From positions 936,008 through 1,000,007 of the forward strand of contig JBFWNU010000001.1 of the NCBI GenBank assembly GCA_050250895.1: 64,000 nucleotides of DNA, in the 5' to 3' direction. The notes beneath the pieces are model-generated. The model saw only the letters and a list, made by a program, of their open reading frames with translations. It did not search any database and was not told where the DNA came from. Within the stretch, counting starts at the first letter, position 1, and every line of letters begins with the position of its first letter. Source of the DNA: Vulcanimicrobiota bacterium (GTDB lineage: Bacteria; Vulcanimicrobiota; Xenobia; Xenobiales; JADMJV01). Below are positions 1,335 through 59,997 of the stretch, piece by piece. Both the position numbers and the translations under genes were made by a program.

Positions 1335-2228
1335 ATGATGATCATGAGCTGTGGGCGGCCCACCTCCCACCAACGCCCTCTCCAAAAAGTCGCTCCGCCC
1401 ACCGAGGCGAGCGCTAGCCCGATCGACCAGGTCGATCTAGATTTTCAGACTTCGCCGGCCGAGGCTCCTCCGAACCATACCCCCAAACTGGCCGCTCTGG
1501 CCGCCGGATGCCTGGGCCTGATGGCTGTGGCCGCCCCCCTGGCCGCCCAGGCCGCTCCCCCGCCTTGCAGCATCGGCATTCAAGTGCCTGGCCACGAGGT
1601 GGGCCAGCCCCTGGGCGAAGGCCAGCTCAAAGAGATGCGTCAGGCCGCTCGGGGACACGACTTCGACAGCCCCGAAGCCAGCCAGATCCGCAAGCGTTAC
1701 GCCAGCCACATCGACCGCCTCGAGGCTGACAGCAAGACCTTTACCCAAACGACCCAGAGTCTGCTGACCCGCGCTGCCAGCCTCGATGCCACCGGCCTGG
1801 CGGAGTATCCCGACGGCTCGCGTTTGAGCCGCGAGACCGAAGGCGAGACCGTTCGCTTGACCGCCCGCGACGCCAAAGGCAACCTGACCCGCTTGACCGA
1901 TACTCCCCAGTTTCGTCGGCTCGAGACCGGCAACCGCCGCCAGACCCTCTATCTGACCGACGGGCTGATGCACCGCCAGGGTGACTTCGTGAGCGAACGC
2001 TACGACGGCAGCCTGACCGTCAACCCTGCCAACCCGACCCGCATCGAATCCAAGAGCGTGATCCACGGCTTCGCCGGAGACATCATCCATCGCGAGATCT
2101 TCGAGAAGCCCGAACTCTCGATTGGGGTCTATCCTTCGCCCGAGTTCGCCTACCGGTCCCATTACCAGGACCAGAGCGGCAAGAGCGATAAGGTGCTGAC
2201 CATCTACAGCGACGGCTCGGTCCATTAG
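1335..2228 (+). CDS. Hypothetical exported protein with a Pro/Ser-rich leader followed by an internal signal-peptide-like segment
   Basis: GGAGG RBS; typical codon usage; LAALAAGCLGLMAVAAPLAAQA at about residues 52-73. Confidence 0.75.
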   Translation: MMIMSCGRPTSHQRPLQKVAPPTEASASPIDQVDLDFQTSPAEAPPNHTPKLAALAAGCLGLMAVAAPLAAQAAPPPCSIGIQVPGHEVGQPLGEGQLKEMRQAARGHDFDSPEASQIRKRYASHIDRLEADSKTFTQTTQSLLTRAASLDATGLAEYPDGSRLSRETEGETVRLTARDAKGNLTRLTDTPQFRRLETGNRRQTLYLTDGLMHRQGDFVSERYDGSLTVNPANPTRIESKSVIHGFAGDIIHREIFEKPELSIGVYPSPEFAYRSHYQDQSGKSDKVLTIYSDGSVH

Positions 2229-2235
2229 CCCCTCT

Positions 2236-3099
2236 ATGGCCGACTTTTCGAACGCGAAAGCCATACTGTACGCTCCCAACGGAGACGACCCCTGGACAGC
2301 CCTGGCCCGCACGACTCATCTGGGGGTGGGGGCCCATCCCGATGACCTCGAGTTCATGGGGTGGCACCCCATCCTCGACTGCTTTGACGATCCCCACAAG
2401 TGGTTCTCGGGGGTCATCGTCAGCGACGGCCGCTCGGCCCCGCGGGCCGGACGCTATGCCAGCCACGATGACGAGGCCATGGTCGAGGTACGCCGCAAGG
2501 AGCAACAGCACGCGGCCGTGACCGGGGAATACTCGGCCATGGCCTATCTGATGCACTCCGAGACGGGGCCGGTCATGGCCGGCCAGTTCGATCCGCTGGT
2601 GAGCGACCTCAAGATCGTGCTCGCAGCGGCCCGACCCGAGGTCATCTTCACCCATAACCTGGCCGATCGCCACCCCCACCACCTGGTGGTCTGCCTGGCC
2701 CTGCTGCGCGCCCTGCGCGCACTCGGCCCGGACTATCGCCCGCGACGCTTCTTCGGCGGCGAAGTGTGGCGAGGCCTCGACTGGCTGTCGACAGCCGACA
2801 AGCTGACCTTTAACGTCAGCCACCACCCCAACCTGACCGCCGCCTTGATGGGAGTCTTCGACTCACAAATCGAGGGAGGCAAGCGCTACGACCAGGCCAC
2901 CGCCGGTCGCAAAAAGGCCAACGCCACCTATCACGATCCCCTGACCACCGACCAGGCCGAAGCCCTGGAGTACGCCATGGATCTGATGCCATTGTTGGAG
3001 AACCCCGACCTGGACCCGGCCGACTACGTGGGGGGCCTCATCGACCGTTTTCGCCAGGAAGTCTGCTACAAGCTTCGGAACCCTGGCCAATGGAAGTAA
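2236..3099 (+). CDS. PIG-L/LmbE family deacetylase
   Basis: AHPDD motif, RxxE, THNLADRHPHH; overlaps nagB. Confidence 0.9.
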   Translation: MADFSNAKAILYAPNGDDPWTALARTTHLGVGAHPDDLEFMGWHPILDCFDDPHKWFSGVIVSDGRSAPRAGRYASHDDEAMVEVRRKEQQHAAVTGEYSAMAYLMHSETGPVMAGQFDPLVSDLKIVLAAARPEVIFTHNLADRHPHHLVVCLALLRALRALGPDYRPRRFFGGEVWRGLDWLSTADKLTFNVSHHPNLTAALMGVFDSQIEGGKRYDQATAGRKKANATYHDPLTTDQAEALEYAMDLMPLLENPDLDPADYVGGLIDRFRQEVCYKLRNPGQWK

Positions 3100-3863
3100 T
3101 CATCCTCGACTCGGACCGTCAGGTGGCCGAGATGGCGGCCGCCATCCTGGTAAAACAGGTCCAACAGAAACCCGATTCGGTCCTGGGTCTAGCCACCGGC
3201 TCGACCATGGTTGAAGTCTACGCCGGGCTCTGTCGCGCTCAACTCGATTTCTCGGGAGTACGGACCTTCAACCTCGACGAGTATGTCGGCCTGGCTCCGA
3301 CCCATCCCAGCTCGTACCACAGTTTCATGCGCGAGCATCTCTTCGAGAAGGTCAACCTCAAGCCCGAGAACTGTCGCGTTCCCGACGGGCTGGCGGGCGA
3401 CATTCCGGGACATTGCGCTGCCTACGAGCAAGCCATCGAGGCCGCAGGGGGCATCGACATCCAACTGTTGGGAATCGGAGAAGACGGGCATATCGCCTTC
3501 AATGAACCGGGGTCATCGCTGGCCTCGCGCACTCGCATCAAGGTCCTCACCCCGATCACCCGGGCCAGCAACGCCCGCCACTTTCCCCCGGGTGAGGAAG
3601 TGCCATTGCACGTGCTGACCATGGGTGTGGGCACCATCCTCGAGGCGCGACGCTGCCTCTTGCTGGCCTGGGGCGAAAAGAAGGCCGCGGCGATCCAGGC
3701 GATGGTGGAAGGCCCGGTCACGGCCATGTGCCCCTCGTCGGCTCTCCAGCTTCATCCCGTGGTCACGGTCATCCTGGATCGGCTGGCCGCTGACCGCCTC
3801 AGCCTCAAGGCCTATTTTCGCCGGGTCTATGAGACCAAGCCAGATTGGCAACGCGAGGTATAG
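3090..3863 (+). CDS. nagB: Glucosamine-6-phosphate deaminase
   Basis: LGLATGST, TFNLDEYVGL, LGIGEDGHIAFNEPG, LTMGVGTI. Confidence 0.97.
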   Translation: MEVIILDSDRQVAEMAAAILVKQVQQKPDSVLGLATGSTMVEVYAGLCRAQLDFSGVRTFNLDEYVGLAPTHPSSYHSFMREHLFEKVNLKPENCRVPDGLAGDIPGHCAAYEQAIEAAGGIDIQLLGIGEDGHIAFNEPGSSLASRTRIKVLTPITRASNARHFPPGEEVPLHVLTMGVGTILEARRCLLLAWGEKKAAAIQAMVEGPVTAMCPSSALQLHPVVTVILDRLAADRLSLKAYFRRVYETKPDWQREV

Positions 3864-3892
3864 AGCCGGGGAAGAGCGGGTAGAACGTCCCT

Positions 3893-4615
3893 ATGTCCGA
3901 GGAAAAGCAAGAGAACTGGGTGAGCGACCTGGTGGCCGACCTCAAGGTCGTGCGGGTGGGCGATGCCATCAAGGAAAGCCTCATTTCCCTCAACCCCAAG
4001 AAGCGCAGCCAGTATTGGAAGAAGGAAGTCCAGGACTTCTACGGCTGGGACCAGCGCAACGATCCCGAGGTCTATCACAAGATCTGCACCGGTTGTCACA
4101 CGGCTGACGACTTCTACGCCAACACCGAGTCGGTGGTCTATCTGGCCGAGCCCACGTCCGACGACGAGTGCTTCAATATCGGCTGCGGAGCGGGACGAGT
4201 CGAGTTTCATCTAGCCCCCAAAGTGGCTCGTATTCACTCCGTCGACTTCTCGACCTCGATGGTCGAACTGGCCCGCGAGAAATGCTCGGTCCACTCCAAC
4301 GTGACCATCTCGCAGAACGACGGCGAGACTCTTCCGCTCGAGGACTCGGGCTACACCCTGGGTTGGTGTGAACTGGTTTTTCAGCATGTGCCGCGCCACG
4401 TGACCCAGGCCTACCTCCAAGAGGTGCACCGAGTCCTCAAGCCTGGGGGCCGCTTCATCTGCAACATCCCCAAGCTCTCGCGCTATGGCAACACCGTGAC
4501 CTGCGGCGGCCTGACCCGCCGCCAGACTCTGAAGATGGTGGAAGGCCTGTTCTCTGACGTGCAGGTGCTCGACCCCGACAACGTCTACCACCACGTGTTG
4601 CTGCTGAGGCGCTAG
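3893..4615 (+). CDS. Class I SAM-dependent methyltransferase
   Basis: IGCGAGR motif I, VDFS, VFQHV, RVLKPGGRF. Confidence 0.9.
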   Translation: MSEEKQENWVSDLVADLKVVRVGDAIKESLISLNPKKRSQYWKKEVQDFYGWDQRNDPEVYHKICTGCHTADDFYANTESVVYLAEPTSDDECFNIGCGAGRVEFHLAPKVARIHSVDFSTSMVELAREKCSVHSNVTISQNDGETLPLEDSGYTLGWCELVFQHVPRHVTQAYLQEVHRVLKPGGRFICNIPKLSRYGNTVTCGGLTRRQTLKMVEGLFSDVQVLDPDNVYHHVLLLRR

Positions 4616-7600
4616 TGCGTCGCCTGGTCATCATTGGGCTGCTGTGCCTGGGACTGGCCCCGGCCTGGGCCCAAACCGGCATGGAATGGGTCGAGCAGGC
4701 TCAACAAGCCGAGGCCGCCGGACAACTCGAGCCAGCGGTCAGAGCATGGGAGAAAGCCGCCGAGATCCTTTCGGACCCGGCGGCCAAAGCCACCGCTCTC
4801 TTCTTTCTGGGACGCGGTCAGATGCAGCTCGGCCGCCATGAAGAATCCTTACACTCCCTGCGTTCTTCGCTGGCCCTCTTTGACCAGCTCGACCGCGACG
4901 ATGGCCGGGCCATGGTCGAATCACAACTTGGCTATCTGTTCATCGAACTCCGGCGCGATGCCGAGGCCGAGGCTAGCTTAACCAACGCCCACGAAGCGGC
5001 CGAACGCTTTGGCGACGAGCGCCGCCAGCGTGAGGTCCTCAAGGCCCTGGCCGAGTTTTGCGACACCCGCCACCGCTGGCCAGAAGCGGCCCATTACTAT
5101 CGATTGCTGATCGAGCTCGAACGGGCGGCCGGCAACCCCCTGGCCGTGGCCGAAGCTCAGATCACCCTGGGAGCGATCGCCCAGCTGCAGTCTGACTATA
5201 CCAGCGCCGAGGCTTTGTATCGCGAGGCTCTGGCAGCCTTCGAACAAGCCGATCAGGCCGACCGCATCCAGCCACTGGTGGACCGCCTGGGTAGAATGCA
5301 TCTTCAATCTGAGCAGTTCGACCAGGCCAGCCAGGAATTCGCGCGGGTCATCGAACTGGCCCGCGCACGCGGCGACCGCCAGAAAGAAGCCGCCACTCTA
5401 GCCAACCTGGGTTATGCCGAGCAACGGGCCCACCACCGTGACCAGGCGGCCGAGGCCTATCGAGCCAGCCTGGACCTGTTCACCCAGTTGGGCGACGACG
5501 ACAACCGCCGGCTAATAGGGCGTCAACTCATCAAAGTGCTGAATGCGCCCGAACAAGCCCGGGCCGTCGACGAACTGTATCCTCGACCTGACCAGCTCCA
5601 GGCCGACCAGAGACTCGAGGCTGCCGGTCTGTGTTTGGAGCTGGGCCTGGTCGAGAAGGCCCAGACGTTTCTCGTCGCGCCCCCCGACGAAGGCCGGGCC
5701 GCCTTTCTCAATCGGGCCGGAATGCTGTGGTCCAAGTATTCTCGCTACGATCTGGCCCGCCCACTATTCGAGCAGGCTTTGGAGCTTGCCCAGGCCAGCA
5801 AGAATCGGGCCCTGGAGGCAAGCACGCACAACAACCTGGGCGAAATGGAACACTCGCTGGGGGCTCTGGATAGGTCTGAGATGAATTATCGCCTGGCCTA
5901 CGGGATCTTTGAGGAGCTTGGCGATCGCAGCTCGCTAGCCTATCTCTGCAACAACCTCGGGCAAATCTATTTCGATCAGGGGCGCTACCGCCAGGCCCTG
6001 CAAATTCTGGGCCGAGCCGAGAGCCTGGCCCTCGATCCCGCGGTCTTCGGCAAGCCCGTCCCCCTGGTGGGGACCGTCCTCAATGCCATGGGCCTCACCC
6101 ACGTCTTTCTCGGCCGCCCTCTCGATGCCGAGAACTATTACCAGAGGGCCCTGGCCGTGCGCAAGGCCCTCAACGACAGACGCGGCGAGGTGGTCACCCT
6201 CACCAATCTCGGAGCTCTGCATAGCGAGAGCAACAAACCCGAGCTGGCCATCGCCACTTCCCTCAAGGCTCTATCCCTGGCCCAGGAACTCAAGGATCCA
6301 AACCTGACCGCTAACCTTTACAATAACCTTGGCAGCCAGTACCAAAAGTCGGGCGATCTGGCCAGCGCCGAACAAGCATACAGCCAGGCCCTGGAACTGT
6401 TCCGCGAGATCGGCGCCCGGGGAAGCCAGGGCATCGCTCTCGACAATATCGGGTCGTTGCTATTGGAGCAAGACAAACTCGCCGAATCGAGCCAGCACCA
6501 TCGCCAGGCCATCGCCTTGCTGCAAGAGTCGGGTCAGCGCCTGCCTCTATGCAGCGCCTACGTCCATCTCGGACATAGCCTGTTGCGCAGCGAAAAGAAC
6601 GAAGAGGCCGACCTGGCCTTCCAAGAAGCCTCGGAATTACTCGAAGATCTCGCCCTGGGGCTGACCCCTCAGGATCGCGCTTCTTTCTTGCAACGGGCCA
6701 AAGACTTGCACGGATGGCGGATGCAGCTGATGCTCTCGCTCAACCAACAAGAGGCCGCCTTCACAATCAGCGAGCAGGCCCGCGCCCAGGAACTTCTGGC
6801 CATGCTGGCGGGGCGTGAGACCTCGCTCGAGGGCGTGCCCAGCGTCCTGGTCGAACGAGAGCGCACTCTGCGAGAAACCATCCGAGCCCTGGTGGCCGCC
6901 CCCTTCTCGCCCCACAACCGAACCGAACTCAACCGCTATAAGGAACTCTACCGAGTCGCTCTCCAGGAGATCGCCCGTTATCGGCCGGTGGCAGCCTCCG
7001 CCAGAAGTGCAGACGCGGCAGCTCCCAGGGACTTACGCGCCCAACTGGGTCCCGACCAGGCCATGATTTGCTTTTATCTTTTCGAGCGGAGCACGCTGGC
7101 GGCGGTGTTGACCTCACAAGACTTCCAGTTCTATCGCCTGCCCATGACCCCAAAGAGTCTGAAAAAGTCGGTGGCCCAGGTGCGTCGTCTGCTGGGTGAA
7201 CCGGGCACCGCGCCGGCCGCCGAGCAAGTGCTCCGAGAGTTGGGAGAGGGCCTGCTCGGGCCTCTCCAACAGGCGATCCAGGGCAAGTCCCATCTCATCA
7301 TCGTGCCCAGCGGGGATCTTCACTACCTTCCCTTCGCCTCGCTTCAATTGGGCGGCCGCTCGCTGGTCGAGGACTACCAGTTGGAAATCGCCGGCAGTGC
7401 TACCGCCTGGCTGCTCCTGCATAGCCGGCCCACTCAACCCGGCCCGGTGGCTGGCTTCGCCCTGGGCAACTACGACATCGATTGGACTCAATCGGCCGCC
7501 AATCCCGATGCCGAGCTGGGACTGGTCCGGGGCCAGAACTTCGCGGCTTTGCCGGGCACCCTGGCGGAACTCGAAGAACTCGAGAGGCTTTTTCCTGACG

Positions 7601-8088: not shown

Positions 8089-8103
8089 CTTGCGTCGCCT
8101 TTG

Positions 8104-8157
8104 TTAACAAAAGGTTTCCATTCTCCTCATCTTGAGGTCATCCCGGCCGCCTATGCT
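8104..8157 (+). promoter_or_regulatory. Putative activator-dependent promoter (11-bp direct repeats plus -10)
   Basis: TTAAC 8104, TTTCC 8115, CTCAT 8126, GTCAT 8137; TATGCT at 8152. Confidence 0.5.
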
Positions 8158-8179
8158 GAGATTCGAGGAGGTGTGCAAC

Positions 8180-8680: not shown

Positions 8681-8704
8681 CCGTAGCGAGCAACCTGGTA
8701 TCTG

Positions 8705-8731
8705 GCCGCCGTCGCGAGACGGCGGCTTTTT
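8705..8731 (+). terminator. Rho-independent terminator
   Basis: GCCGCCGTC-GCGA-GACGGCGGC followed by TTTTT. Confidence 0.9.
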
Positions 8732-8740
8732 CTACGAACC

Positions 8741-8783
8741 GAAACACCACTGTAACAATTCGCTCGCCTGGCGAGCATACGGT
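8741..8783 (+). promoter_or_regulatory. Putative activator-dependent promoter (11-bp direct repeats plus -10)
   Basis: GAAAC 8741, GTAAC 8752; TACGGT at 8778. Confidence 0.5.
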
Positions 8784-8792
8784 CGATGGGCA

Positions 8793-9752
8793 ATGATCTG
8801 TTCTACTGTTAGCACGCCCATCTCCTATCCCTCCCTGCGCCCGGTGGCTAGAGCCGCTCAAGACTGCGGTGGCAGCTGCCCTACCGACCAGGCCGACCTG
8901 GGGCAAATGCCCCCCGACACCCCCGAACTCACCCAGATACTGAAGGCTTTTGCCGGCGCAACCCAACGTCCTTACTATGACGAGGCCGGCGATGCGGCCC
9001 AGATTCAGAAGTACTACGGCAACCTCGAGCCCGGCAGCGACTCGGCCGAGTTCTACCGGGCCTTGCAGCGAAAGCTCGAGTCCAGCCACACTTCTCCCCG
9101 CAGCTACTCTCCCTCGAAGTGGCTCTATCCCTGGGTCGATATCCACCCCGACGGCAACCTTCGCAGCGTCTATTCAGGCCAGATGCTCAACGCCGAAAAC
9201 CTGATCCGCCAGGACTATTGGCGGGCCCAGTCCGAGATTCTCGTCTCGTACATGACCTCACCCGAGACGGCCGGCGCAGCCCTGGCTATCCTCGAGTCGC
9301 AGGCCGCCTTCAATTGCGAGCATGTCGTGCCCCAGTCGTGGTATTCCAAGCGCGAGCCGATGCGCGGCGATCTGCATCATCTGTTTGCCTGCGAACCCCG
9401 TTGCAATAGCGCCCGGGGCAACCTGCCCTACTACGACTTTCCCGAGAACGAAGACACCATCCGCAACGACTGTGGCCGTATCGACCATAGCGGACGCCAC
9501 TTCGAGCCCGAGGGGGGTAAGGGAGCGGTGGCCCGAGCCACCCTCTACTTCTTGCTGCGCTATCCGGGGGCCCTCGACGATTACTCGCCGCGCGACATCG
9601 AGACGCTACTCGAGTGGCATCGCGAGAATCCGGTCAGCCTCTACGAGAAACACCGTAACGCGGCCATCGAAGAGATCCAGGGCAATCGCAACCCGCTGAT
9701 CGACCATCCCGAGTGGGCTGACAAGATCGACTTCACCCAGGGCCTGCGGTGA
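8793..9752 (+). CDS. Endonuclease I (EndA/Bsn-like His-Me finger nuclease) lacking a Sec signal peptide
   Basis: FNCEHVVPQSW, DLHHLFACEPRCNSARGN, KGAVARATLYFLLRY, QGNRNPLIDHPEW. Confidence 0.92.
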   Translation: MICSTVSTPISYPSLRPVARAAQDCGGSCPTDQADLGQMPPDTPELTQILKAFAGATQRPYYDEAGDAAQIQKYYGNLEPGSDSAEFYRALQRKLESSHTSPRSYSPSKWLYPWVDIHPDGNLRSVYSGQMLNAENLIRQDYWRAQSEILVSYMTSPETAGAALAILESQAAFNCEHVVPQSWYSKREPMRGDLHHLFACEPRCNSARGNLPYYDFPENEDTIRNDCGRIDHSGRHFEPEGGKGAVARATLYFLLRYPGALDDYSPRDIETLLEWHRENPVSLYEKHRNAAIEEIQGNRNPLIDHPEWADKIDFTQGLR

Positions 9753-10534: not shown

Positions 10535-10552
10535 GAGTGGGAAGACTCGGCG

Positions 10553-10720
10553 GTGAGGTCTCGCGAAGAAATTCTGGCTCAATTTCCCGAACGCGACATG
10601 GACGGCTGCTGGGAGATCAGTCCCCACGCCGACAGTCGCTGGCGTGCCGCCGTTCTCGAGGTCTTGCTCGACATCCGCGAGGCCGTCTGCAGCGAAATCG
10701 CCCGTCAGCAAGCTGACTGA
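10553..10720 (+). CDS. Small hypothetical protein (55 aa, below ORF-track cutoff)
   Basis: GTG..TGA ORF MRSREEILAQFPERDMDGCWEISPHADSRWRAAVLEVLLDIREAVCSEIARQQAD fills the gap between two + genes; genome-like codons. Confidence 0.6.
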   Translation: MRSREEILAQFPERDMDGCWEISPHADSRWRAAVLEVLLDIREAVCSEIARQQAD

Positions 10721-10723
10721 CGA

Positions 10724-23028: not shown

Positions 23029-25887
23029 ATGAGCAAGACGATTCAAGGCGCCGGCGCAGCCGGTCTTCAGGGTGGTGTAGGCGGCGGAGACGAACTCAAT
23101 CCCGATGCCATCGATGCCGAATTCGACCAGGCCATCAACAAGGTCGCGGGCGCCCCCAAGAAGGCTCAGAAGAAGATCCCCCCCGAGACGGTACCTAACC
23201 TCCAGGCGAACAAGGCCGACGTGCGGGCTCAAAACGAGCAGGCTGAGCAATCCCAGGCCGACGCGAAGGCCACGGCCGGCGACCTGGGCGTCGATGGGGT
23301 CGCCTCGGACGCGGGTGAGGCCTTCGCCCAGAAGAACTTCGGCGCGGACCTCCAGGCCGGACAGAACGCCGGTATGGACGGCGGCATCAGCCCCATGATG
23401 GGCGCCCAGCTCAACAAGACCCGAGACATGTTCGGTGACGATTTCGGTTCAGACTTTCAACCGCGCCAGGCCGGTGCCGATTTAGGCAGCGGCAGCGGCT
23501 TTACCAACTCCAACGACCTGGGTGAACTCAGCCAGCAACTCAACAAATCGACCCGCTCGGGCGGGTTGCTCCAGCAAGACTTCGGCGAGGTCGGCGGCGC
23601 CCTGGGCAAGGCCCTCCAAAAAAACGACGTGTTGGGGCGCAAAGTCGAAGGCCTCGGGAAAGTCAAAGACGCTTTCGGAGCCAAGGAAAAGGCCCACGGC
23701 CTGAGCGAGAAGGCTTTTCACGGCGCTGGCGACGGCCTCGAGAAAGCCGCCCAGGGCCTGGGCACGGCCGCTCAAGTGCTGCACAGCGTGGCCGGCATGC
23801 TCGAAGGCGTGGCCAGCGCGGTCGAGGCCATTCCCTTTGTGGGACCAGCCCTGGCCGCCTCGTTGCGAGCCGCTTCGAAAGCCACCGACATGGTCGGGAC
23901 CGGGCTTGACATTGCCGCCGAAGCCTGCGCCAAGTCGGGCGAGAAGATGCACAACAACGGCAAGAAGGAGGGGCAAAAGAAGAACGTCAACAAGGCCAAG
24001 AAGCTGCAGACTCAGGCCAAAGAGCAAAAGGCCAAGGAAAAGCTCGACCGCAACAAGGAGAAAGTCGACAATCTGGGCGAGCAGAAGAACCAGATGGCCG
24101 AAAAGCTCGACCAGAATCAAGAGCAGCAAAAGGGCATCGCCAACCGCATGAAAGAACTCGGCCAGGAGGTCGAGGTGGGCGACGGCGGTCGCAACGATCG
24201 CGACAAAGAGAACCTCGACGCCAAGAAGCTCAAGAACAAGGCCAAGCTTGACGCCAAAAAGGCCGAGCATAAGAACCAGGGACCCGAGCAATCCAAGGAG
24301 ACCAAGCAAGAGGCCCAGGACGCGCGCCAGGCCGAGCAAAAGGCCGAATCCCACGCCAAAGAGATTTCCAACAAGACCGGCCAGGCCAAAGAGCAAGCCA
24401 AAGAGGCTTCGCAGTCGGCCAAGCAGGCAGCCACCAGCGCTCAGTCGGCGGCCGCTTCGGCTCCCAAGCCCACCCGCGAAGCGGCCCCCGCCCCGGCGGC
24501 GGCTCCCTCCATCTCGGCTGCTCCGGCCGCCGACTCTGGTGGCGGTGGCGGCAGCGGTGGCGGACGGGGTGCCGGTGGTGGCGGCAAAGCCGCAGCCGTG
24601 GGCGGTGCTGGTGGCGGCGCCAAGGCGGCCCCGGCCGCTCCCAAGGCCGCTCCTGCTCCTCAGGCTTCGTCGCCGGCTCCCAAGGCCTCGGCCCCTGCCC
24701 CCAAAGCTTCCGCTCCGGCTCCGAAAGCCGCGGCTCCGGCCCCCAAAGCGTCGGCCCCGGCTCCAAAAGCCGCGGCCCCCAAAACCGAGAACAAAGCCCC
24801 TAAGGTCGATACCAAAGCCAGCACCGAGTCCAAGGCTCCCAAGGTAGAGACGAAGGCCCCGCCCAAGACCGAGACCAAGCAAGAAGCTCCCAAGCCTCAG
24901 GCCGAAAAGGTCAGTCCCAAGCACGAGACCGGCGACAAGGGCGAGCAGAAAACCGAGAAAAACGAAAAGGGCGACAAAGCCGCCCAAGAAACCAAGAAGC
25001 CCCACGAGAAGAAGAAAGGCCACTCTCAGGCCGAGAAGAAGAAAGACGAGAAAGAGCCAGAAGTCGGCAACCTCGATGCGGCCACCGGCGCCAAGCATGC
25101 CGAAGGCGACCACAAGAAAGACGGCAAGGACGTCAAGGAGATCAAAGAGCTCGACGGCAAGAAGGACAAGAAAGCCGACAAGCATCACGATCGCGACAAA
25201 GACAAACAAAAAGCCGAAGACAAGAAGAAGGCTCAAGAGCAGAAGAAAGCTCGCCGGGCCAACGCCAAACGCAAGAATAAGCTCAAGAACAAGCTCAAGA
25301 ACGACGACAACAAAGAGAACCGCGACGGCGGGCTCAAGAAGGGCCGCGACAAGCGTGAAGAGTTCGAAGCCGAACTCAAGCGCCTCAGTGATCGGGTCAA
25401 AGGCTCCAAGGATAAACAGGGCAAAGGCGAGCAGATTCAAAAGCGCGCCGACCAGCGCAACCTGGGCATGCTTTATCGCCAGGTGGCCAACGAAGGGGTG
25501 CCCATCGACCGCGATGTAGACAGCAAAGTCAAAGAAGCGATGCAAGACGCCCCCGACCGCCCCAGCGTCCAGGCCAAACTGGCCCAGGGCAAATCCGACC
25601 TCGACGGCCAGGGTGCCGATACCGGGGAAGGGCGCCGCGATAACATGCGAGAAGATCGCAAGGACGCGCTCAAGAAGAAGAACCAGGCCCGACCGCTGGG
25701 AGCCGAGCAAAGCCGGGAGCAACAGCAGCAACAGCAGCAGGCTGAGCAACAGGCCGAGCAACCGCAGCAGAACGACAATGACCAGAAGGTTGCCGAAGTC
25801 GGCAACATCGAGCCGGTCGAGACCAACCTCGGCGGCCAGGATATGGTACCCAATGTCGGCGAAACGGAGCACGTAGACATCAAGTAG
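23029..25887 (+). CDS. 952-aa low-complexity protein: hydrophobic hairpin, coiled coil, PKA repeats, Lys-rich tail
   Basis: GGAG RBS; strongly biased codons; hydrophobic stretch VLHSVAGMLEGVASAVEAIPFVGPALAASL; the opposite-strand ORF is a shadow. Confidence 0.85.
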   Translation: MSKTIQGAGAAGLQGGVGGGDELNPDAIDAEFDQAINKVAGAPKKAQKKIPPETVPNLQANKADVRAQNEQAEQSQADAKATAGDLGVDGVASDAGEAFAQKNFGADLQAGQNAGMDGGISPMMGAQLNKTRDMFGDDFGSDFQPRQAGADLGSGSGFTNSNDLGELSQQLNKSTRSGGLLQQDFGEVGGALGKALQKNDVLGRKVEGLGKVKDAFGAKEKAHGLSEKAFHGAGDGLEKAAQGLGTAAQVLHSVAGMLEGVASAVEAIPFVGPALAASLRAASKATDMVGTGLDIAAEACAKSGEKMHNNGKKEGQKKNVNKAKKLQTQAKEQKAKEKLDRNKEKVDNLGEQKNQMAEKLDQNQEQQKGIANRMKELGQEVEVGDGGRNDRDKENLDAKKLKNKAKLDAKKAEHKNQGPEQSKETKQEAQDARQAEQKAESHAKEISNKTGQAKEQAKEASQSAKQAATSAQSAAASAPKPTREAAPAPAAAPSISAAPAADSGGGGGSGGGRGAGGGGKAAAVGGAGGGAKAAPAAPKAAPAPQASSPAPKASAPAPKASAPAPKAAAPAPKASAPAPKAAAPKTENKAPKVDTKASTESKAPKVETKAPPKTETKQEAPKPQAEKVSPKHETGDKGEQKTEKNEKGDKAAQETKKPHEKKKGHSQAEKKKDEKEPEVGNLDAATGAKHAEGDHKKDGKDVKEIKELDGKKDKKADKHHDRDKDKQKAEDKKKAQEQKKARRANAKRKNKLKNKLKNDDNKENRDGGLKKGRDKREEFEAELKRLSDRVKGSKDKQGKGEQIQKRADQRNLGMLYRQVANEGVPIDRDVDSKVKEAMQDAPDRPSVQAKLAQGKSDLDGQGADTGEGRRDNMREDRKDALKKKNQARPLGAEQSREQQQQQQQAEQQAEQPQQNDNDQKVAEVGNIEPVETNLGGQDMVPNVGETEHVDIK
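24620..24785 (+). repeat. Coding tandem repeat, about 21-bp unit encoding (A)PKA(S/A)AP
   Basis: APKASAP APKASAP APKAAAP APKASAP APKAAAP with synonymous variation. Confidence 0.85.
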
Positions 25888-25891
25888 GAGG

Positions 25892-26602
25892 TTGGCGCCA
25901 TTGGATTGTCCCTTTTGTGAACAGCGGCTGGGCGACGTCAGTTCAGGAAAGTGCAATCACTGCGGGCAAGACCTGGCTCCTCCGCCCCCTCACGTCTATG
26001 GTGAACCGGCCAGGGCGATCGTCGACGCCCTGGCCCAGGTCAGGGGTCGACAGATGCCCATGGACCAGTTGCCCCGGCTGTTTTCGCATCTGATGGGTTC
26101 AGTGCAGCAGGTCCTGGATCAGGCCTCTGAAGATCTCAGCGAGAACTTCTCGCGCATTCAGGCGGCCGTCGATGAAATGCCGGCCGACAACCGTCTCGAA
26201 ATCTCGGACTTCATCGAGGATTTTCGCGACATCCAGGACGAGATCAACGACACCCTGCTCAACATGGGTGACATCTTCGACGAAAACCAGACCCTCGACG
26301 AGTTTCGCCAGCGCGAAGTGCTGCTCAACGGCTATCTGTTGACGCTGCAAAGCTCGGTCGATGCCCTGGGTGCGCTCAAGCAAGAGACCAGTATCTCGGC
26401 CCTGCAAGAGTTGCCTAACGACCCTCTGCCAGCCGATGTCGAGAAGGCCCTCGACTTCTTCGACAAGGCCATGGGCGCGCTGGTGCGTTACATCGAAGGC
26501 GACCGGGACCTGGCTGAAGTCTCGGCCTGCCTGCGCCACACCGAGGCCGCCAAGACGCATCTGGCCCGCTTGTTGCTGGTGGATAGCATGAGGGGAACTT
26601 GA
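25892..26602 (+). CDS. Hypothetical protein: N-terminal zinc ribbon plus acidic helical bundle
   Basis: CPFC...CNHCG; starts directly after the 952-aa gene. Confidence 0.75.
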   Translation: MAPLDCPFCEQRLGDVSSGKCNHCGQDLAPPPPHVYGEPARAIVDALAQVRGRQMPMDQLPRLFSHLMGSVQQVLDQASEDLSENFSRIQAAVDEMPADNRLEISDFIEDFRDIQDEINDTLLNMGDIFDENQTLDEFRQREVLLNGYLLTLQSSVDALGALKQETSISALQELPNDPLPADVEKALDFFDKAMGALVRYIEGDRDLAEVSACLRHTEAAKTHLARLLLVDSMRGT

Positions 26603-47808: not shown

Positions 47809-48285
47809 CTACTCTTTGCCGGCCTTGTGGGCGGCCCAGCCGCCGACGGCGGCGCCGACGCCGAGCATGAAAACGGCACCCAGGGGACTGCCGAACGTGC
47901 CGGCGGTGAGACCGAGGAAGGCGGCCTGGCCGAGGAAGCGGCCGCGGTTGGCGGCATTCTTATCCAACGAGGCGCCCAGGTCGCCATAGAAACTGGTGGC
48001 TTCCTTGCCGACATAGTTGCCGACCACGGCGCCCCCGACGAGACCGACGACGGTGCCGGCTACGGCGCCGACCTGGCCCAGGGACGAGCCGATGGCTTCG
48101 CCGATGCGAGCTCCGGCCGAGGCGGCGGTGATGCCCAAGAAGAGCGGGGTCACGTCGCCGTAGAAGTCGGCGGCAGCCGTGTAAAAAGCGTCTTTCGGCT
48201 CAGGGCTAGCCGGGGGAGTGGGGTTCTGCGGAGGGTTCTGCCCATTGGCGCGGTTGACTGAGGGGGTGTAGTTAGCGACTTTCAT
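47809..48285 (-). CDS. Glycine-zipper membrane protein with Pro/Asn-rich leader
   Basis: GxxxG repeats (IGEAIGSSLGQVGAVAGTVVGLVGGAVVG); AGGA RBS. Confidence 0.8.
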   Translation of the reverse strand: MKVANYTPSVNRANGQNPPQNPTPPASPEPKDAFYTAAADFYGDVTPLFLGITAASAGARIGEAIGSSLGQVGAVAGTVVGLVGGAVVGNYVGKEATSFYGDLGASLDKNAANRGRFLGQAAFLGLTAGTFGSPLGAVFMLGVGAAVGGWAAHKAGKE

Positions 48286-50480: not shown

Positions 50481-50630
50481 AGGATACTCCTGATTTGGTT
50501 CGCCGGGACGTTGGCTGATAGCCCCCCCCGGTTGGCTGAGGACGCCTCTTTTCACCCCTTTCGTTCAAATCCTGCCTGCCAAATAGATTCATGAAGGAAC
50601 CCTTTGCAGGTCTGGCCAAGCCCGGTTGCG

Positions 50631-52646: not shown

Positions 52647-52655
52647 GGAGACGAC

Positions 52656-54716: not shown

Positions 54717-54736
54717 CTGCGCCGCTGCGTGCCTCT

Positions 54737-55690: not shown

Positions 55691-55743
55691 TCGCGAACGC
55701 GAGCCACCTGCTGTCAGACGCGATCTTCGAGAAGGAGTTTCCT

Positions 55744-56703
55744 ATGCGAACACGAGTTCTGACCATCCTCACCCTTCTGCTGGTGGCCTCGGCCTCGGCC
55801 GAGCAGGTGCGCGACCTGCGGGGCGACGAGGGAGTGCTGATGGACTTGCGTCCCACCGGGGTCGAATGGCTGACCAAGGATCGCCTGTTTGTGGTCGATC
55901 AGCGCTGGAACGCCATGCACATCTTCGACACCGAAGGGCGCCGCTTTCGCTTCATCGAGTTTCCGCGCATGATCGGACCGGCCTTCTACTCGGGCACGGC
56001 CCACTACAAGGCCAACGAATACTATGTGACCGGCTCTCACTATCATGAGAAGAACAATCAACGCTATCTGCAGCAACGAGCCGTCATTCACAAGGTCATC
56101 ATCAACGGCGAGGATTTGGGCGCGGGTTCGGTGGAAGAGAACTACTCTCCCGACATGGCCCTGCGCAAGACCCGTCTGTTCGGTTCGACCCCGGTCGAGC
56201 AGATGGAGATCTCGGGTATCGCCATGGACGAAAAGCACAATCGGCTTTTTCTCGGCCTGGCTCGACCCCTGACCGACAAAGGCACGATCCTGATGCTGAC
56301 CGGACCGCTCGACGAGTTTCTCGAGCGCAAGGAGAGCCTGGAGTTCGACCTGCTCGACACCGGCATCAAGCCTCCCACCGAGCCGGCCTGCGGGACCCAG
56401 TTCTACCTGTCCGATATAGAATATGTGCCTGACCGCGGAGTGGTCTGCCTATTGACCGCCGAAGCGAGCGGCGGCCATCGGTTCTGCTCGAACCAGATCT
56501 GGTTTCTCAAGGGGGGCTTTGGCCCTGGCAAGATGATCCGTCAGGAACTGGCCCCTCAGAACCGGGCCACCGGCATCGCCTTGATGAAGGTGGGTGACTT
56601 CGACTATAAGGTGGCCCTGGTCTGTGACAACAACCCCGAGGAAACCAAGATCCCCTCGCGCCTGATCATCCTCGACGAGCCGATCCGCCTGCAGTTGCGC
56701 TAG
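55744..56703 (+). CDS. Hypothetical secreted beta-propeller-like protein
   Basis: AAGGAG RBS; signal peptide ..ASASA; beta-rich blades (PTGVEW, ISGIAMD, LSDIEY, ATGIAL). Confidence 0.7.
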   Translation: MRTRVLTILTLLLVASASAEQVRDLRGDEGVLMDLRPTGVEWLTKDRLFVVDQRWNAMHIFDTEGRRFRFIEFPRMIGPAFYSGTAHYKANEYYVTGSHYHEKNNQRYLQQRAVIHKVIINGEDLGAGSVEENYSPDMALRKTRLFGSTPVEQMEISGIAMDEKHNRLFLGLARPLTDKGTILMLTGPLDEFLERKESLEFDLLDTGIKPPTEPACGTQFYLSDIEYVPDRGVVCLLTAEASGGHRFCSNQIWFLKGGFGPGKMIRQELAPQNRATGIALMKVGDFDYKVALVCDNNPEETKIPSRLIILDEPIRLQLR

Positions 56704-56708
56704 GGGAT

Positions 56709-57094
56709 TTCAGACGGTAGACGGTAGCTGAGGCCGAGGGAGCTTGAATTGGACCCGGCAGCGCTCGCTCGTCGTAGAAACCGCCGAGATCGCGAAGACG
56801 CGGAGGTCGGGAAACTGGACAGCGCCCGCTCAAGATCAACGAACGGAGAGGTTCAGATTTGGGGGGAGTAGGGCTCTCTAGCGATTCTTAATGGTTGACG
56901 CCGGTGCGGCTGGAACTGGAACGTCGTTCCACCGTGGTTTCCTGGGTAACCTCCTAGCACCGACCATCAAAGGGACCACCCCGCAGCGCCCACCGCGTAT
57001 CTCCGCGGTTTTTCCCCTTCGAGCGCCCACCCAAGAAACGAACTTCCCCCTCGGCGCCTCCGCGGCTCGGCGGTTTTCACCCACGAGCGCCCAC
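56709..57094. repeat. Second non-coding repeat mosaic related to 46901-47630
   Basis: TTCAGACGGTAGACGGTAG; inverted pair AAACCGCCGAG (56778)/CTCGGCGGTTT (about 57066-57076); GTATCTCCGCGGT; CGAGCGCCCAC x2. Confidence 0.65.
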
Positions 57095-57106
57095 GTCTCG
57101 AACGGC

Positions 57107-58210
57107 TTAAGCCCCGCCAGGGTGAGGGCGGAAGTACTCTCGACAGCTCTTCATGTAAGCCAGGAACTCGTCGCTCTGGGGGCGGATCGAGGCGGCTTTG
57201 AGAGTGGCCAGCGAACTCTCGAGCAAGGCGAACATCTCGGTGGTGAAGGTGTTGTAGTGCTGAATCTCGTGATAGAGAACGGGATTTTCCTCCGAGACCT
57301 CGGCGGTGGTCTTGACCAGCTTGGCAAAGGTGGTGCTGGCCACCTTGCCAAGAAACGCAAAGGGCAAGCCGAAGTGGCCGGCCGCGTGGGCAAACTGCAG
57401 GTTGACGGCGTGACTCATGCCCAGCACCACGGCCATGATCTTGTCGTGTTGCTCGAGTTCCACCTCGAAAAGACCCAGGGCGGTCTCGGCGAACAGGTCG
57501 AGAGCGGCGTCGGTGGCTTCGCGGCAGCCGGCGTCGCAAACGAGCACGGCCCGCCCGTGCAAAAGCACCGCACCGGGCGCGAACATGGGGTGCAGGCTGG
57601 TCACGCGATGCCCGTCCAGAGCGGCCCGGCGCAGGATTGGCGCCACCTGGCTCTTCAAGCTGCAAATATCGAAAATTAATGGCTTTCCGCCCGAACGCAG
57701 AACCTGCTCGAGCACCTGAGGAGTGACTTTGAGAGGAGTGGCCAGGACCACGACTTCTGAGTCAGGCACTCCCTCGGCCAGGCTGACCCTGGGCCAGGGT
57801 GACTCCTGGTCGGAAGAATCGCAGATGGTGACACTATGGCCCTGGGCTTCGAAAAAGCGACACAGCCAGACACCCATCCGGCCACTTCCACCCACCACCA
57901 GCACCTTTCTCGAGCCCACCGCCGGCAAGCCACGAGGGATCTCGGCCTGAGTCTGGACCGCGGCAGCCATCAGGTGTTCGAGAACCTGCTCGGCCACCTC
58001 TTCGTCAAAGCCAAGCTCGCGCGCGCTGGCGCGAGCTCTCGATAGCACTTCTACCTCGACCCGAAAGTCGCGAATGGGCAGCCCGGCGCGATGCTTGGCC
58101 TCTCCGATCTTGCGAGTGGTGGCCAGCCGCCGGCCCACCAGAGCCAGAATCTCGCGATCTAGCTGGGCAACCTCGCGGCGCAGGGGGGCTAACTCTTGCT
58201 CGACATCCAT
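57107..58210 (-). CDS. tyrA: Bifunctional chorismate mutase/prephenate dehydrogenase
   Basis: AroQ-type N-terminus (LRREVAQLDREIL); VGGSGRMG, DICSLK, HPMFAP, HDKIMA. Confidence 0.9.
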   Translation of the reverse strand: MDVEQELAPLRREVAQLDREILALVGRRLATTRKIGEAKHRAGLPIRDFRVEVEVLSRARASARELGFDEEVAEQVLEHLMAAAVQTQAEIPRGLPAVGSRKVLVVGGSGRMGVWLCRFFEAQGHSVTICDSSDQESPWPRVSLAEGVPDSEVVVLATPLKVTPQVLEQVLRSGGKPLIFDICSLKSQVAPILRRAALDGHRVTSLHPMFAPGAVLLHGRAVLVCDAGCREATDAALDLFAETALGLFEVELEQHDKIMAVVLGMSHAVNLQFAHAAGHFGLPFAFLGKVASTTFAKLVKTTAEVSEENPVLYHEIQHYNTFTTEMFALLESSLATLKAASIRPQSDEFLAYMKSCREYFRPHPGGA

Positions 58211-58263
58211 GGGCGGCGATTCCCCGACCAGGGGAAAGTCTCCTGGAACCGAAATCGGGAGCC

Positions 58264-58635
58264 ATGGCCGATCACCTCTATATCGAGGCGCTCGAAGTCG
58301 ATTGTATCATCGGGCTGGCCGAGTGGGAACGCCTGGTGCGTCAGACGGTCTGTCTCGACCTCGAACTCGAGGGTGACCTGCGCAGCTCGGCGCGTGTCGA
58401 TGCGGTGGTCGAAGGGGGCATCAACACCAAGGCGGTGGCCAAGCGACTGCTGGCTTTCGTGAGCCAAACCGAATTCCAACTGCTCGAGTCTCTGGCCGAG
58501 CGCGTCTGTGAGCTGATCCTGACGGAGTTTCCGGTGGACCGGGTAGGTTTGCGACTGTCGAAACCCGGGGCCATTCGCGGCGCCCGCAACGTGGGAGTGG
58601 CCATCAGCCGCTCGCGGAGCGACTATCCGCTATGA
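58264..58635 (+). CDS. folB: Dihydroneopterin aldolase
   Basis: IIGLAEWERLVRQ, LLESLAE, LSKPGA. Confidence 0.92.
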   Translation: MADHLYIEALEVDCIIGLAEWERLVRQTVCLDLELEGDLRSSARVDAVVEGGINTKAVAKRLLAFVSQTEFQLLESLAERVCELILTEFPVDRVGLRLSKPGAIRGARNVGVAISRSRSDYPL

Positions 58636-59093
58636 GCGTGGCCTATCTCGACCTCGGCTCGAACATCGAGCCCCAGGCCAGCCTGCGCCAGGCTGTCGGG
58701 CTACTCCAGGCGGAATTTGAGGTGCGGCGATGTTCTTCGGTCTTCGAGACCGCTCCGGTCGGCATCACCGAACAACCCGCCTTCTGGAACATGGCTGTCG
58801 AGATCGAGACGGCTCTCCTGTCCGACGCGCTCCAACTTAGACTACGCTCGATCGAAGACCGAATGGGACGAGACCGGAGCGGCCCCAAATACGGACCCCG
58901 CAACATCGACATCGACCTCATCCTCTACGGCCAGTACGCCCACCCCCAGCTCGAGGCCCAGGCCTTTGTGCTGGTACCGATCTGCCAACTCTGCCCCGAC
59001 CACCTTCACCCGCGTCTGGGCCGCCCCTTGAGCGAGTTGCTGGCCGGGCTTGATTATCGAGCCGGTGACATTCGTGAGTTGGGGCCGCTGTAA
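58632..59093 (+). CDS. folK: 2-amino-4-hydroxy-6-hydroxymethyldihydropteridine diphosphokinase
   Basis: LGSNI, FETAPVG, GPRNIDIDLILY. Confidence 0.95.
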   Translation: MSVAYLDLGSNIEPQASLRQAVGLLQAEFEVRRCSSVFETAPVGITEQPAFWNMAVEIETALLSDALQLRLRSIEDRMGRDRSGPKYGPRNIDIDLILYGQYAHPQLEAQAFVLVPICQLCPDHLHPRLGRPLSELLAGLDYRAGDIRELGPL

Positions 59094-59184
59094 CATCCCG
59101 TCAATTCGGGCTTAACGACGCTTCCCTAAGGTGACCACGGGGGGTCCGCCCTCCGTATCTAAGCACACTCGGAGAGATATACAG

Positions 59185-59997
59185 ATGATTTCCTCTATTT
59201 CTTATCGGCCTGCAGTGGCCTCCGCCCCCGTCCGCGCCCATGCTCCCGCCGCCCCCGCGGCCGCTCCCGCTGAAGACGCGTTCGACCCCATCGGCCTGGG
59301 CGACGTCGACACCGTCCAGAAGGCAATGCAATTGCCCATCATGGACCCCGTCTATCAGGGCAGCGTCGGTCTCGGATTGGTAGCCGTCGCCCTGGGCGGC
59401 GCTTTCGGCACCGCCCTCAACGCCAGTGTCCGCGGCGAGACCTCGAGCGACGGAACCCCCGCCAACATCACCCAGTTCAACGCCTCGGCCCGGGGCGACA
59501 AGTTGGGCGGTCTGGTCGGTGGCTACGTGGCCATGAACTACTTCATGGCCGGCGAACTCTCGGTCGACCAGGGCAAGCACGTGGCCACCTGGCGCGAAAC
59601 CTTCGGTAGCACCGACGTCGAACTCAACTTCTCGGTGGACGAAGGCTCACAGCAACTGACCATGGATGGCCATCTCGGCAGCGTCCCGGCCCACCTGGTC
59701 TATACCGGCGTGCAGACCGCTGCCGGTGGGGCCGTCATCAACGTCGAGGGAATCCTGGGCGGGCAAGACTACAAAATGCAAACCAGCCTGGACACCATCC
59801 CCACCGACCAGGGCCAGTCGACCTTCAACATCAGCACCCGGGGCAATGTTGGCGACCTGACCGTGGACAAGACCTATCAGGGTCAGGTCGATATCGACCA
59901 GGAAGGTCGCACCGTCGGTCTGACCATCGACGGCTCGGGCCAGAACGCCGGCCACCAGCAGACCGTCAACGTTCGGGCTGCCGTCGGTCCGGCCTAG
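59185..59997 (+). CDS. Hypothetical beta-rich protein with Ala/Pro leader and a hydrophobic segment
   Basis: GGAG RBS before ATG 59185; MISSISYRPAVASAP...; VGLGLVAVALGGAFG. Confidence 0.75.
   Translation: MISSISYRPAVASAPVRAHAPAAPAAAPAEDAFDPIGLGDVDTVQKAMQLPIMDPVYQGSVGLGLVAVALGGAFGTALNASVRGETSSDGTPANITQFNASARGDKLGGLVGGYVAMNYFMAGELSVDQGKHVATWRETFGSTDVELNFSVDEGSQQLTMDGHLGSVPAHLVYTGVQTAAGGAVINVEGILGGQDYKMQTSLDTIPTDQGQSTFNISTRGNVGDLTVDKTYQGQVDIDQEGRTVGLTIDGSGQNAGHQQTVNVRAAVGPA

Follow-up and report, generated by a model that had tools for sequence, protein, structure and literature searches.

Four leader proteins in the window

The DNA analysed here, referred to as the window, is a 64,000-nucleotide stretch of the genome of a Vulcanimicrobiota bacterium of the order Xenobiales (contig JBFWNU010000001.1, positions 936,008 to 1,000,007; coordinates are those of the window unless a contig is named). 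It carries four genes whose products, P1 to P4, have unrelated bodies and open with the same kind of N-terminal leader, made up of a short N-box at the initiating Met, a spacer and a six-residue box, the D-box, that starts with an Asp. A first-pass annotation of the window had pointed out these four reading frames, and their coordinates, their unrelated bodies and the position of the Asp (residue 31, 32, 32 and 31 in P1 to P4) were all confirmed. The Asp had been taken as the end of the leader, which did not hold, as it is the first residue of the D-box. The description of the leaders as non-Sec was upheld: in the KD11 hydrophobicity test (threshold 2.2, segments starting at residues 2-25), the maxima over the first ~35 residues of P1 to P4 were 0.35, 1.11, -0.29 and 0.66, all below 1.2, so that no hydrophobic stretch is present. 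P1 and P2 have a D-box of an aliphatic kind, P3 and P4 one of an aromatic kind.

The source genome is 9.5 Mb long in 17 contigs, with 63% G+C and a completeness of 99.6%. A crude gene set was defined as 7137 GC3-filtered open reading frames (ORFs), and P1 to P4 are the four top scorers with the leader profile described below among the 56 crude genes of the window. Comparisons were made across 21 genomes of the order, consisting of this genome and 20 relatives in three families (f1, f2 and f3), of which the f3 genomes are small (2.4-2.6 Mb).

P1 (1335-2228, + strand, 297 aa) has a body without a Pfam match. Its leader (residues 1-36, 1335..1442) has the N-box MMI and the D-box DQVDLD at residues 31-36 (nt 1425-1442). 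The genome also encodes two ~35% identical paralogues with the same kind of leader, and the two other homologues present in a collection of 5.8 billion proteins (P0002 and P0003) both keep it. A hydrophobicity scan located a segment at residues 52-74 (1488..1556) that has A-Q-A at its end and, lying downstream of the leader, may serve as a Sec-type signal or as a membrane anchor. Upstream on the same strand lie TTCAC at 1261-1265, TTCAC at 1272-1276 and TTCTAG at 1283-1288, spaced by 11 nt, followed by TAGGCT at 1298-1303 (-37); together these are a degenerate version of the family promoter described below. A ribosome-binding site, GGAGG, can be read at 1325-1329, and the P1 mRNA is therefore not leaderless. 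Immediately upstream of P1, at 946-1305, is a gene for a small protein that was labelled PilZ-like by reading its sequence; small proteins given this label in the same way, this one included, adjoin 7 of the 89 leader genes sampled below.

P2 (8793-9752, + strand, 319 aa) is an endonuclease I, with the Endonuclease_1 domain (PF04231, Pfam E 7.9e-33) at residues 151-307 (9243..9713). Its leader (residues 1-37, 8793..8903) has the N-box MIC, a pair of Cys residues and the D-box DQADLG at residues 32-37 (nt 8886-8903). The first-pass annotation had remarked that this nuclease lacks a Sec signal peptide, and the same proved true of its relatives: homologues occur in 17 of the 21 genomes (f1 12/12, f2 4/4, f3 0/4), and of the N-termini at 16 loci of relatives, none has a signal peptide and many have clear leaders. 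The endonuclease is multi-copy in the f1 and f2 relatives, with 2-6 matches per genome, and gave zero matches in the four f3 genomes. The gene upstream of P2 ends in a terminator-like hairpin with a T-run (8704-8727 and following, + strand) that is listed by the terminator scan, so P2 is likely to be its own transcription unit; the motif scan placed a GTAACA before it at 8752-8757 (-41, + strand). The Cys pair (C-x-C or C-x2-C), 5-12 residues ahead of the D-box, recurs in several leaders (P2 at 8793-8903, C1:3447226, C1:2256977, C1:711381, C4:472859, C10:163952, C14:1004 and C7:114822, given as contig and position), for which metal binding and acylation are possibilities.

P3 (47809-48285, - strand, 158 aa) has a leader (residues 1-37, 48175..48285) with the N-box MKV and the D-box DAFYTA at residues 32-37 (nt 48192-48175). 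It is followed by a glycine-zipper-like hydrophobic region at residues 57-95 (48001..48117), for which PF13488 scored E 4.6e-4, below its curated cut-off. A paralogue at C2:270039 and the orthologue in a genome of the same genus (G001) keep the same kind of leader. On the - strand upstream of P3 are GTAACG at 48351-48346 (-66) and TAGACT at 48325-48320 (-40), and a hairpin upstream of the gene is terminator-like when read by eye and absent from the list of the terminator scan.

P4 (59185-59997, + strand, 270 aa) is counted from the ATG at 59185, although the longest frame opens at a GTG at 59131; its orthologues begin at the Met equivalent to ATG 59185. The leader (residues 1-36, 59185..59292) has the N-box MIS and the D-box DAFDPI at residues 31-36 (nt 59275-59292). 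The P4 family is present in 10 of the 21 genomes, and N-box, spacer and box are kept in 13 aligned homologues. Upstream on the + strand are TTAACG at 59112-59117 (-73), GTAACA at -95 and a ribosome-binding site, GGAGAG, at 59171-59176, 8 nt before the ATG; the ribosome-binding sites of P1 and P4 both lie 5-8 nt ahead of the start. In an AlphaFold2 model (alignment A3 with 14 homologues, mean predicted local distance difference test (pLDDT) score 74), residues 1-35 have a pLDDT below 50, while the body (59347..59991, + strand) is predicted to form a hydrophobic helix at residues 55-73, followed at residues 78-269 by an antiparallel beta domain of 14 strands. Compared with the PDB by Foldseek, this model had no match at E<=1e-3 and only weak similarity, to outer-membrane-type barrels; like P1, P4 has zero Pfam family matches.

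The leader family and its promoter

The leader family was defined by positional statistics and by a profile, because motif strings tried earlier were too rare for this purpose. Thus the string P-x-D-Q-[VAIL]-D-L has two occurrences in the six-frame translated genome, in P1 and P2, which by a rough estimate is about what chance would give. The pattern D-x-[VIFY]-[EDQ]-[LIFP]-[SG], starting at residues 20-39, was found 38 times among the 7137 crude genes, and its density at these residues, 0.27 per 1000 residues, is fourfold that overall (0.07). The profile was built from 39 seeds in three iterations and has 46 positions. It was run against all 59,405 ORFs of at least 50 aa, with the identical database reversed as control, and matched 58, 73, 104 and 132 ORFs at E<1e-3, 1e-2, 0.1 and 1, compared with 1, 1, 1 and 8 in the control. 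The family is thus far larger than the four proteins first noticed, with 104 ORFs against one at E<0.1. Position 1 of the profile fell on an ATG, GTG or TTG in 107 of 133 matches, among them some in which the ORF extends further upstream. The opening is shared by paralogues of P1, P3, P4 and the endonuclease elsewhere in the genome, and by one protein with an unrelated body.

Composition and promoter counts were made on 89 members at E<0.1; where a background of 7074 genes is given, it consists of the other crude genes. The leader is ~35 residues long. Its N-box is Met-[K/R/Q]-[I/V], residue 2 being mostly K, R or Q and residue 3 being I or V in 86 of 89 members. The spacer is enriched threefold in Pro and 1.6-1.7-fold in Ser, Gln, Thr and Ala, while Leu, Glu, Gly and aromatic residues are depleted. 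The D-box is D-x-[V/I/L]-x-[L/I/V/F]-[S/G] or D-x-[F/Y]-x-P-[S/G], and its Asp lies at residues 24-37 in 64 of the 65 members with the box pattern, with a median of 29. The two flavours covary within the box (aliphatic-x-aliphatic 48, aromatic-x-Pro 17, mixed 5; Fisher p 2e-11). D-box codons vary synonymously, which places the constraint on the protein. Among the same 65 members the Asp favours odd positions, with 16, 13 and 10 cases at residues 27, 29 and 31, and 5, 3 and 3 at residues 28, 30 and 32.

None of the 89 leader proteins has an early hydrophobic core (KD11>=2.2), compared with 1530 of the 7074 other genes. The non-Sec character noted for the four window proteins therefore extends to the whole family, and Sec signal peptides cleaved by signal peptidase I or II were rejected on the absence of an early h-region. 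Tat signals were also rejected, as there is no twin-arginine with an h-region and library models matched 0 of 10 leaders. Neither Pfam nor NCBIfam matched any of 10 leader peptides at E<=5, and an ESM Atlas look-up of one leader gave no usable match. A search of 1.84 billion representatives with the leader profile returned four proteins at E<=1e-3, the 46-position profile being too short for a library of that size. The leader is undescribed in the sequence-family libraries and the literature searched.

Many leader genes share upstream motifs. TTTCAG precedes 28 of the 89 (4.3 expected), TAG[AG]CT 26 of 89 (367 of 7074 others), TTAAC 20 of 89 (467 of 7074 others) and a composite of TTTCAG and TAG[AG]CT 9 of 89 (39 of 7074, odds ratio 20). 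The logo of the composite promoter, from 38 sites, is TTCAG-N5-TTTCAG-N10-(C)TAGRCT-N6-ATG, in which a 10-bp direct repeat replaces the -35 box; examples are found at C1:3565244, C2:298126, C3:139961 and C6:48178. A genome scan with the composite gave 140 sites, of which 45 are followed within 4-9 nt by the start codon of a frame of 60 codons or more. Of these 45 ORFs, 25 by count open with x-x-[I/V], compared with 975 of the 7137 genes overall, and a paralogue of the endonuclease is one of the 45. The short distance from the -10-like box to the ATG requires the mRNAs to be leaderless, and this fixes the leader Met as the start. The TTCAG direct repeat looks like a response-regulator-type binding site, and judged from sequence the promoter defines a regulon of mostly leader proteins, so that many leader genes would be co-regulated. 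The first-pass annotation had placed all four window genes behind a shared promoter. An association of leader and promoter motifs is borne out genome-wide, but only in part for these four genes, where the full composite is found upstream of none and partial motifs are present.

These results bear on the alternative that the leaders are a chance likeness of low-complexity N-termini or arise from mis-set starts. The P-x-D-Q-x-D-L string does occur at a frequency close to chance, and not all of the window proteins score well by themselves. At Z=7137 and with two profiles, P1 is the only significant scorer of the four (E 1.6e-8 and 2.6e-7; 5e-5 in the genome-wide ORF search), P4 is borderline (0.021 and 0.078), P3 is weak (0.18 and 0.59) and P2 is not significant (8.2 and 9.7); for P2 and P3, each taken alone, this tells against a leader, and their assignment to the family, made by sequence comparison, rests on the leaders of their homologues. 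For the family, this alternative is contradicted by the reversed control, the D-box covariation, the coincidence of the profile with start codons, the leaderless promoters abutting the ATG and the retention of the leader in homologues of all four window proteins. We regard it as very nearly eliminated. The leader family is real: it is translated, conserved at the protein level and restricted to a lineage.

Cargo, distribution and candidate export machines

Pfam families were assigned to 20 of 30 leader proteins scanned (9 of the first ten). Enzyme bodies of extracytoplasmic type comprise Peptidase_C11 (clostripain-like), GHL10, GH32/68/43-like, M13, GDSL lipase and EEP nuclease, a subtilase S8 with N-pro and MAM domains and an MGH1-like hydrolase; binding-type bodies behind the leader are peptidoglycan-binding, LysM, MAM and discoidin domains. 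Subtilases with a pro-domain, endonuclease I, C11, M13 and GHL10 are extracytoplasmic families, and peptidoglycan-binding, LysM and MAM/discoidin domains are extracytoplasmic as well. To judge from these bodies, the leader occupies the place of the Sec signal peptide on typical exoenzymes. Bodies of cytoplasmic or membrane type also occur, among them a glycerol-3-phosphate-oxidase-like DAO, a polytopic lipid desaturase and a dioxygenase.

Hydrophobic segments after the leader are distributed unevenly: of the 89 members, 37 have none, 30 have several, 12 have a single early one, as in P1, and 10 have only distal ones. Many of the multi-segment members are small Gly-zipper proteins like P3. The leader could in principle be an N-terminal extension of a Sec signal peptide that tunes targeting by Sec or the signal recognition particle, in the manner of the extended signal peptide region (ESPR) of autotransporters. 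P1, its paralogues and several others do have a hydrophobic segment with A-x-A or a lipobox-like Cys 15-30 residues past the D-box, but 37 members are without any hydrophobic segment and 10 have only a distal one, and the ESPR model in Pfam matches 0 of 10 leaders. On the same grounds an ESPR proper was rejected, and we consider the extension highly improbable.

Another reading is that the leader is a cytoplasmic tag unrelated to export, for instance a common degron, a peptide that directs localisation or binds a scaffold, or a handle for regulation. Such a tag suits all body types, as a cytoplasmic tail on membrane proteins and a label on soluble ones; were the downstream segments cleaved signals, the leader would act only before export; and the members appear to be co-regulated. 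It leaves the members of extracytoplasmic families without any other export signal, and for this reason we judge it unlikely, if a serious rival.

The 489 genes neighbouring the 89 leader genes belong, where recurrent, only to abundant families: response regulators, kinases, PilZ and GspF-like proteins. Neither a candidate export machine nor a recurring immunity-like gene was found among them. The latter bears on a further explanation, that the leader is a bacteriocin-type translocation region for entry into target cells, much as colicins and pyocins use their TonB or Tol boxes. In a TonB box, an acidic residue precedes an alternation of aliphatic residues and Thr/Ser, and colicins, like the leader proteins, are not known to have signal peptides. 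The alternation of the D-box within a disordered N-terminus fits this model, and a cargo of nuclease, pore-former-like and cell-wall-binding proteins resembles killing domains. The strict first three residues and the fixed distance from the N-terminus are not known as colicin features, however, no common receptor-binding domain is present, the more than 100 members include metabolic-type and polytopic enzymes, and the genome has a single, weak TonB-dependent receptor (one Plug domain), on which account a TonB-dependent route was retained only as a rival of low probability. We give this explanation little chance.

Leader matches at E<=0.01 were found in at least 16 of the 21 genomes (at least 11 of 12 in f1, 4 of 4 in f2 and 0 of 4 in f3 among the candidates scored), using a profile that was trained on 39 leaders of the source genome and whose sensitivity drops quickly with distance. 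At least 53 matches were found in the source genome, compared with at least 6 in the same-genus genome and at least 26 in G017. Across the phylum, 22 of 121 genomes have a match at E<=1e-3, nearly all of them in f1 or f2, with f3 mostly negative.

The genome has two complete, divergent sets of flagellar-type export genes, with identities of 44% for FlhA, 33% for FlhB, 46% for FliP and 50% for FliI. Set 1 has flagellin, FliD, FliS, a sigma factor, stator genes and FlgM as neighbours. Its type of FlhA (FlhA1) is present in 7 of the 21 genomes, which are exactly the seven that bear flagellin and include the six with FlgM. Set 2 is an operon outside the window (C1:1458932-1476156) in which ten genes were checked with Pfam and the rest assigned by BLAST between the two sets and by reading. 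The order is FlgB-FlgC-FliE-FliF-FliG-FliI-FliJ-SLT transglycosylase-FliK-like, then short FlgE/F/G-like-FliM-FliN-FliN-FliO-P-Q-R-FlhB-FlhA, genes for flagellin, hook-associated proteins, the cap and the stator being absent. All 21 genomes have this type of FlhA (FlhA2), 77-95% identical, and for 14 of them the search for flagellin was negative. The first-pass annotation had suggested looking for flagellar-type export genes without flagellin, and a flagellar core is indeed kept by every genome of the order that was searched. G017, which is rich in leaders, has only the set 2 apparatus. Set 2 may be a flagellum-derived secretion apparatus, and on circumstantial evidence it is the best candidate for the exporter of the leader proteins. 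A third FliF-like gene (C2:554979-556562), 29% identical to the FliF of set 2, lies apart from both flagellar loci.

Eight further proteins have the C-terminal, substrate-docking domain of FlhA alone (C1:1126937-1128244, C1:2013805-2014935, C1:2473604-2476609, C6:529281-530666, C7:117220-118743, C7:121829-122929, C1:2008332-2009819 and C8:31611-33212). In one of them it is fused to the C-terminal domain of FlhB (model residues 247-333), in one to HTH_3 and in one to FliG_N and membrane segments. Each relative gave between 5 and 17 FHIPEP matches. The FlhB-C/FlhA-C fusion has full-length orthologues in genera g1, g2 (5/6) and g4 (4/4) and none in g3 and f3, a distribution that seems roughly to follow leader abundance and is confounded by phylogeny.

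Other routes of export were also considered. A cargo signal for a contractile injection or type VI secretion system was rejected, since PF04984 and PF05943 gave 0 matches where the controls were positive. Export by a double-glycine ATP-binding cassette transporter of the C39 type was rejected as well: the genome has one Peptidase_C39 match (a 233-aa frame), and no Gly-Gly is conserved after the D-box, where Gly occurs in 6 of 43 leaders at each of the two following positions. The leader could be a tag for some other machine, either a type II or type IV pilus-like system or a new translocon, its likeness to type III signals being convergent. The distribution of the leader (0 of 4 in f3, 22 of 121 in the phylum) does not follow a type III apparatus present in 21 of 21 genomes, membrane and lipoprotein-like members are ill-suited to type III export and no library model matches the leader. 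In addition, type II secretion and type IV pilus-like systems are extremely expanded in this genome, with 149 T2SSF domain matches and ~75 GspF/PilC-like genes. Because of this abundance, the six GspF-like genes among the 489 neighbours are estimated to be about what chance would give, and no candidate machine was found among those neighbours. Moreover, type II and type IV pilus machines take their substrates from the membrane or the periplasm, as is generally known, and not from the cytoplasm. We think another machine improbable, while treating it as a serious rival. One GspF/PilC-type copy lies at C1:932495-933454, ~2.5 kb before the start of the window. Within the window, positions 24001-26000 show a strong strand asymmetry (596 A vs 175 T, AT skew 0.55).

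Interpretation and comparison with known signals

The leader probably marks proteins for sorting or export, is recognised in the cytoplasm and takes the place of the Sec signal peptide. We tentatively favour, at somewhat less than an even chance, the reading that it is a bipartite, Sec-independent export signal recognised by a flagellar-type type III export gate. Docking at the gate would fall to the D-box, the spacer would act as a ruler and the small hydrophobic N-terminus would then reach the gate and open it. The bipartite early flagellar signal of Salmonella works in this way. The machine would be the flagellin-less core operon of set 2, conserved in every relative searched. The cargo of nucleases, proteases, lipases, glycosidases and Gly-zipper proteins looks like an effector or exoenzyme arsenal. 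A fuller proposal is that the leader is the conserved signal of a type III machine derived from the flagellum and lacking flagellin, or else of an entirely new exporter, by which this large-genome clade would release more than 100 effectors, possibly into other cells; kinase-like enzymes and Gly-zipper pore-formers would be among them, with the two D-box flavours as two recognition classes and the FlhA-C proteins as receptors, pilots or sensors; taken as a whole, this is doubtful. Delivery into other cells, which the first-pass annotation had raised, is something we only infer.

Several observations weigh against export through a type III gate, in addition to the differences from known type III substrates given below. 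No result connects the leader to the type III apparatus. The FlhA1-type set, in its 7 of 21 genomes, does not track the leader, and the four f3 genomes have the apparatus while the profile, trained on the source genome, gave no leader match there. No chaperone family was found adjoining leader genes among the 489 neighbours. Some members are enzymes of cytoplasmic type (RNase II, ADP-PFK/GK-like, C26 amidotransferase and a PI3/4-kinase-like domain) and three are polytopic lipid desaturases. Of the hydrophobic segments after the leader, judged by eye, some end in A-x-A and at least four end in a lipobox-like Cys, and such Sec-like, lipobox-like and polytopic segments make a poor fit to a type III substrate. 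These members are the main unexplained difficulty, and it is on their account that a non-export tag and an unknown machine stay serious rivals. Of the original suggestion that the proteins are substrates of a type III or flagellar-derived exporter, the presence of an apparatus has stood, whereas a link between leader and apparatus was not supported, and the f3 genomes and the membrane members speak against it.

To our knowledge, type III and most other non-Sec substrates are not recognisable from sequence. Here, in an uncultured lineage, a simple profile reads out a substrate list of more than 100 candidate exported or effector proteins, together with a common promoter and a candidate machine, in a host group that is biosynthetically rich and possibly predatory. 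If the link to the flagellar core is true, this would be an independent case of a flagellar apparatus that became a general secretion system with a defined signal, and the way type III substrates are read and the origin of injectisome-like systems would become testable. If the leader serves another route or purpose, it would still be an undescribed sorting code, carried by a large number of hydrolases and membrane-active proteins under common regulation.

As an N-terminal address label common to unrelated proteins, the leader resembles Sec, Tat, lipoprotein, ESPR and double-glycine signals in general plan. It also has general features of type III signals: it lies at the extreme N-terminus, is disordered (in the P4 model), is rich in Ser, Thr, Pro and Gln and is poor in Leu. 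The closest functional analogue appears to be the bipartite signal of early flagellar substrates. A study of Salmonella FlgD describes a hydrophobic N-terminal signal and a gate-recognition motif that docks at FlhB-C (Bryant et al. 2022, PMC8983047); the two have to be separated by at least 19 residues, and 24-30 are best. The leader likewise has two elements in a disordered N-terminus without a hydrophobic core. Where the flagellar signal has small hydrophobic residues at positions 2-7, 86 of 89 leaders have I or V as their third residue, and in both a short hydrophobic motif follows ~30 residues downstream at a constrained spacing (leader Asp at 24-37). The two differ in that the D-box, D-x-[VILFY]-x-[LIVFP]-[SG], is not F-x-x-x-hydrophobic, and in that the leader is carried by more than 100 enzymes and membrane proteins, not by axial proteins, and can be searched for with a profile.

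FlgM, to which the leaders had been likened, does not hold up as a relative in profile comparisons. By eye, the FlgM proteins of this order have M-x-[V/I], a polar spacer and a hydrophobic-x-hydrophobic-Ser box at residues 39-49, which is where the Pfam FlgM model (PF04316) begins. They are without the invariant Asp, however, and FlgM occurs in 6 of 21 genomes compared with at least 16 of 21 for the leader. PF04316 matched 0 of 10 leaders at E<=5, finding in the genome one true FlgM and weak partial matches, and the leader profile gave -0.2 to 9.8 bits with six FlgM N-termini, the best (7.6-9.8 bits) ranking 149-172 of 7137.

Packaging peptides of contractile injection systems offer another likeness. 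The cargo of Photorhabdus virulence cassettes (PVC) and of the antifeeding prophage (Afp) is reported to have disordered N-terminal peptides by which diverse toxins are packaged (PMC11495950; bioRxiv 10.1101/2023.11.13.566157). Such cargo is likewise without a Sec signal, but a sheath of either type was not found in this genome.

A conserved internal motif behind a type III signal seems to have a precedent in injectisome effectors. One study describes a motif conserved at residues 25-45 of effectors and read by multi-cargo class IB chaperones (Costa et al. 2012, PMC3280449), with the chaperone-binding consensus (LMIF)xxx(IV)xx(IV)x(N) (PMC3280449). No injectisome is present here, both FHIPEP loci being of the flagellar type, and a search for class I chaperones (CesT) gave no match, with control genomes equally silent. 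The class IB chaperone-binding domain is a short motif of spaced hydrophobic residues in otherwise unrelated secreted proteins; it follows the N-terminal secretion signal and overlaps with a beta-strand motif. The D-box resembles it in this general plan and differs from it in consensus.

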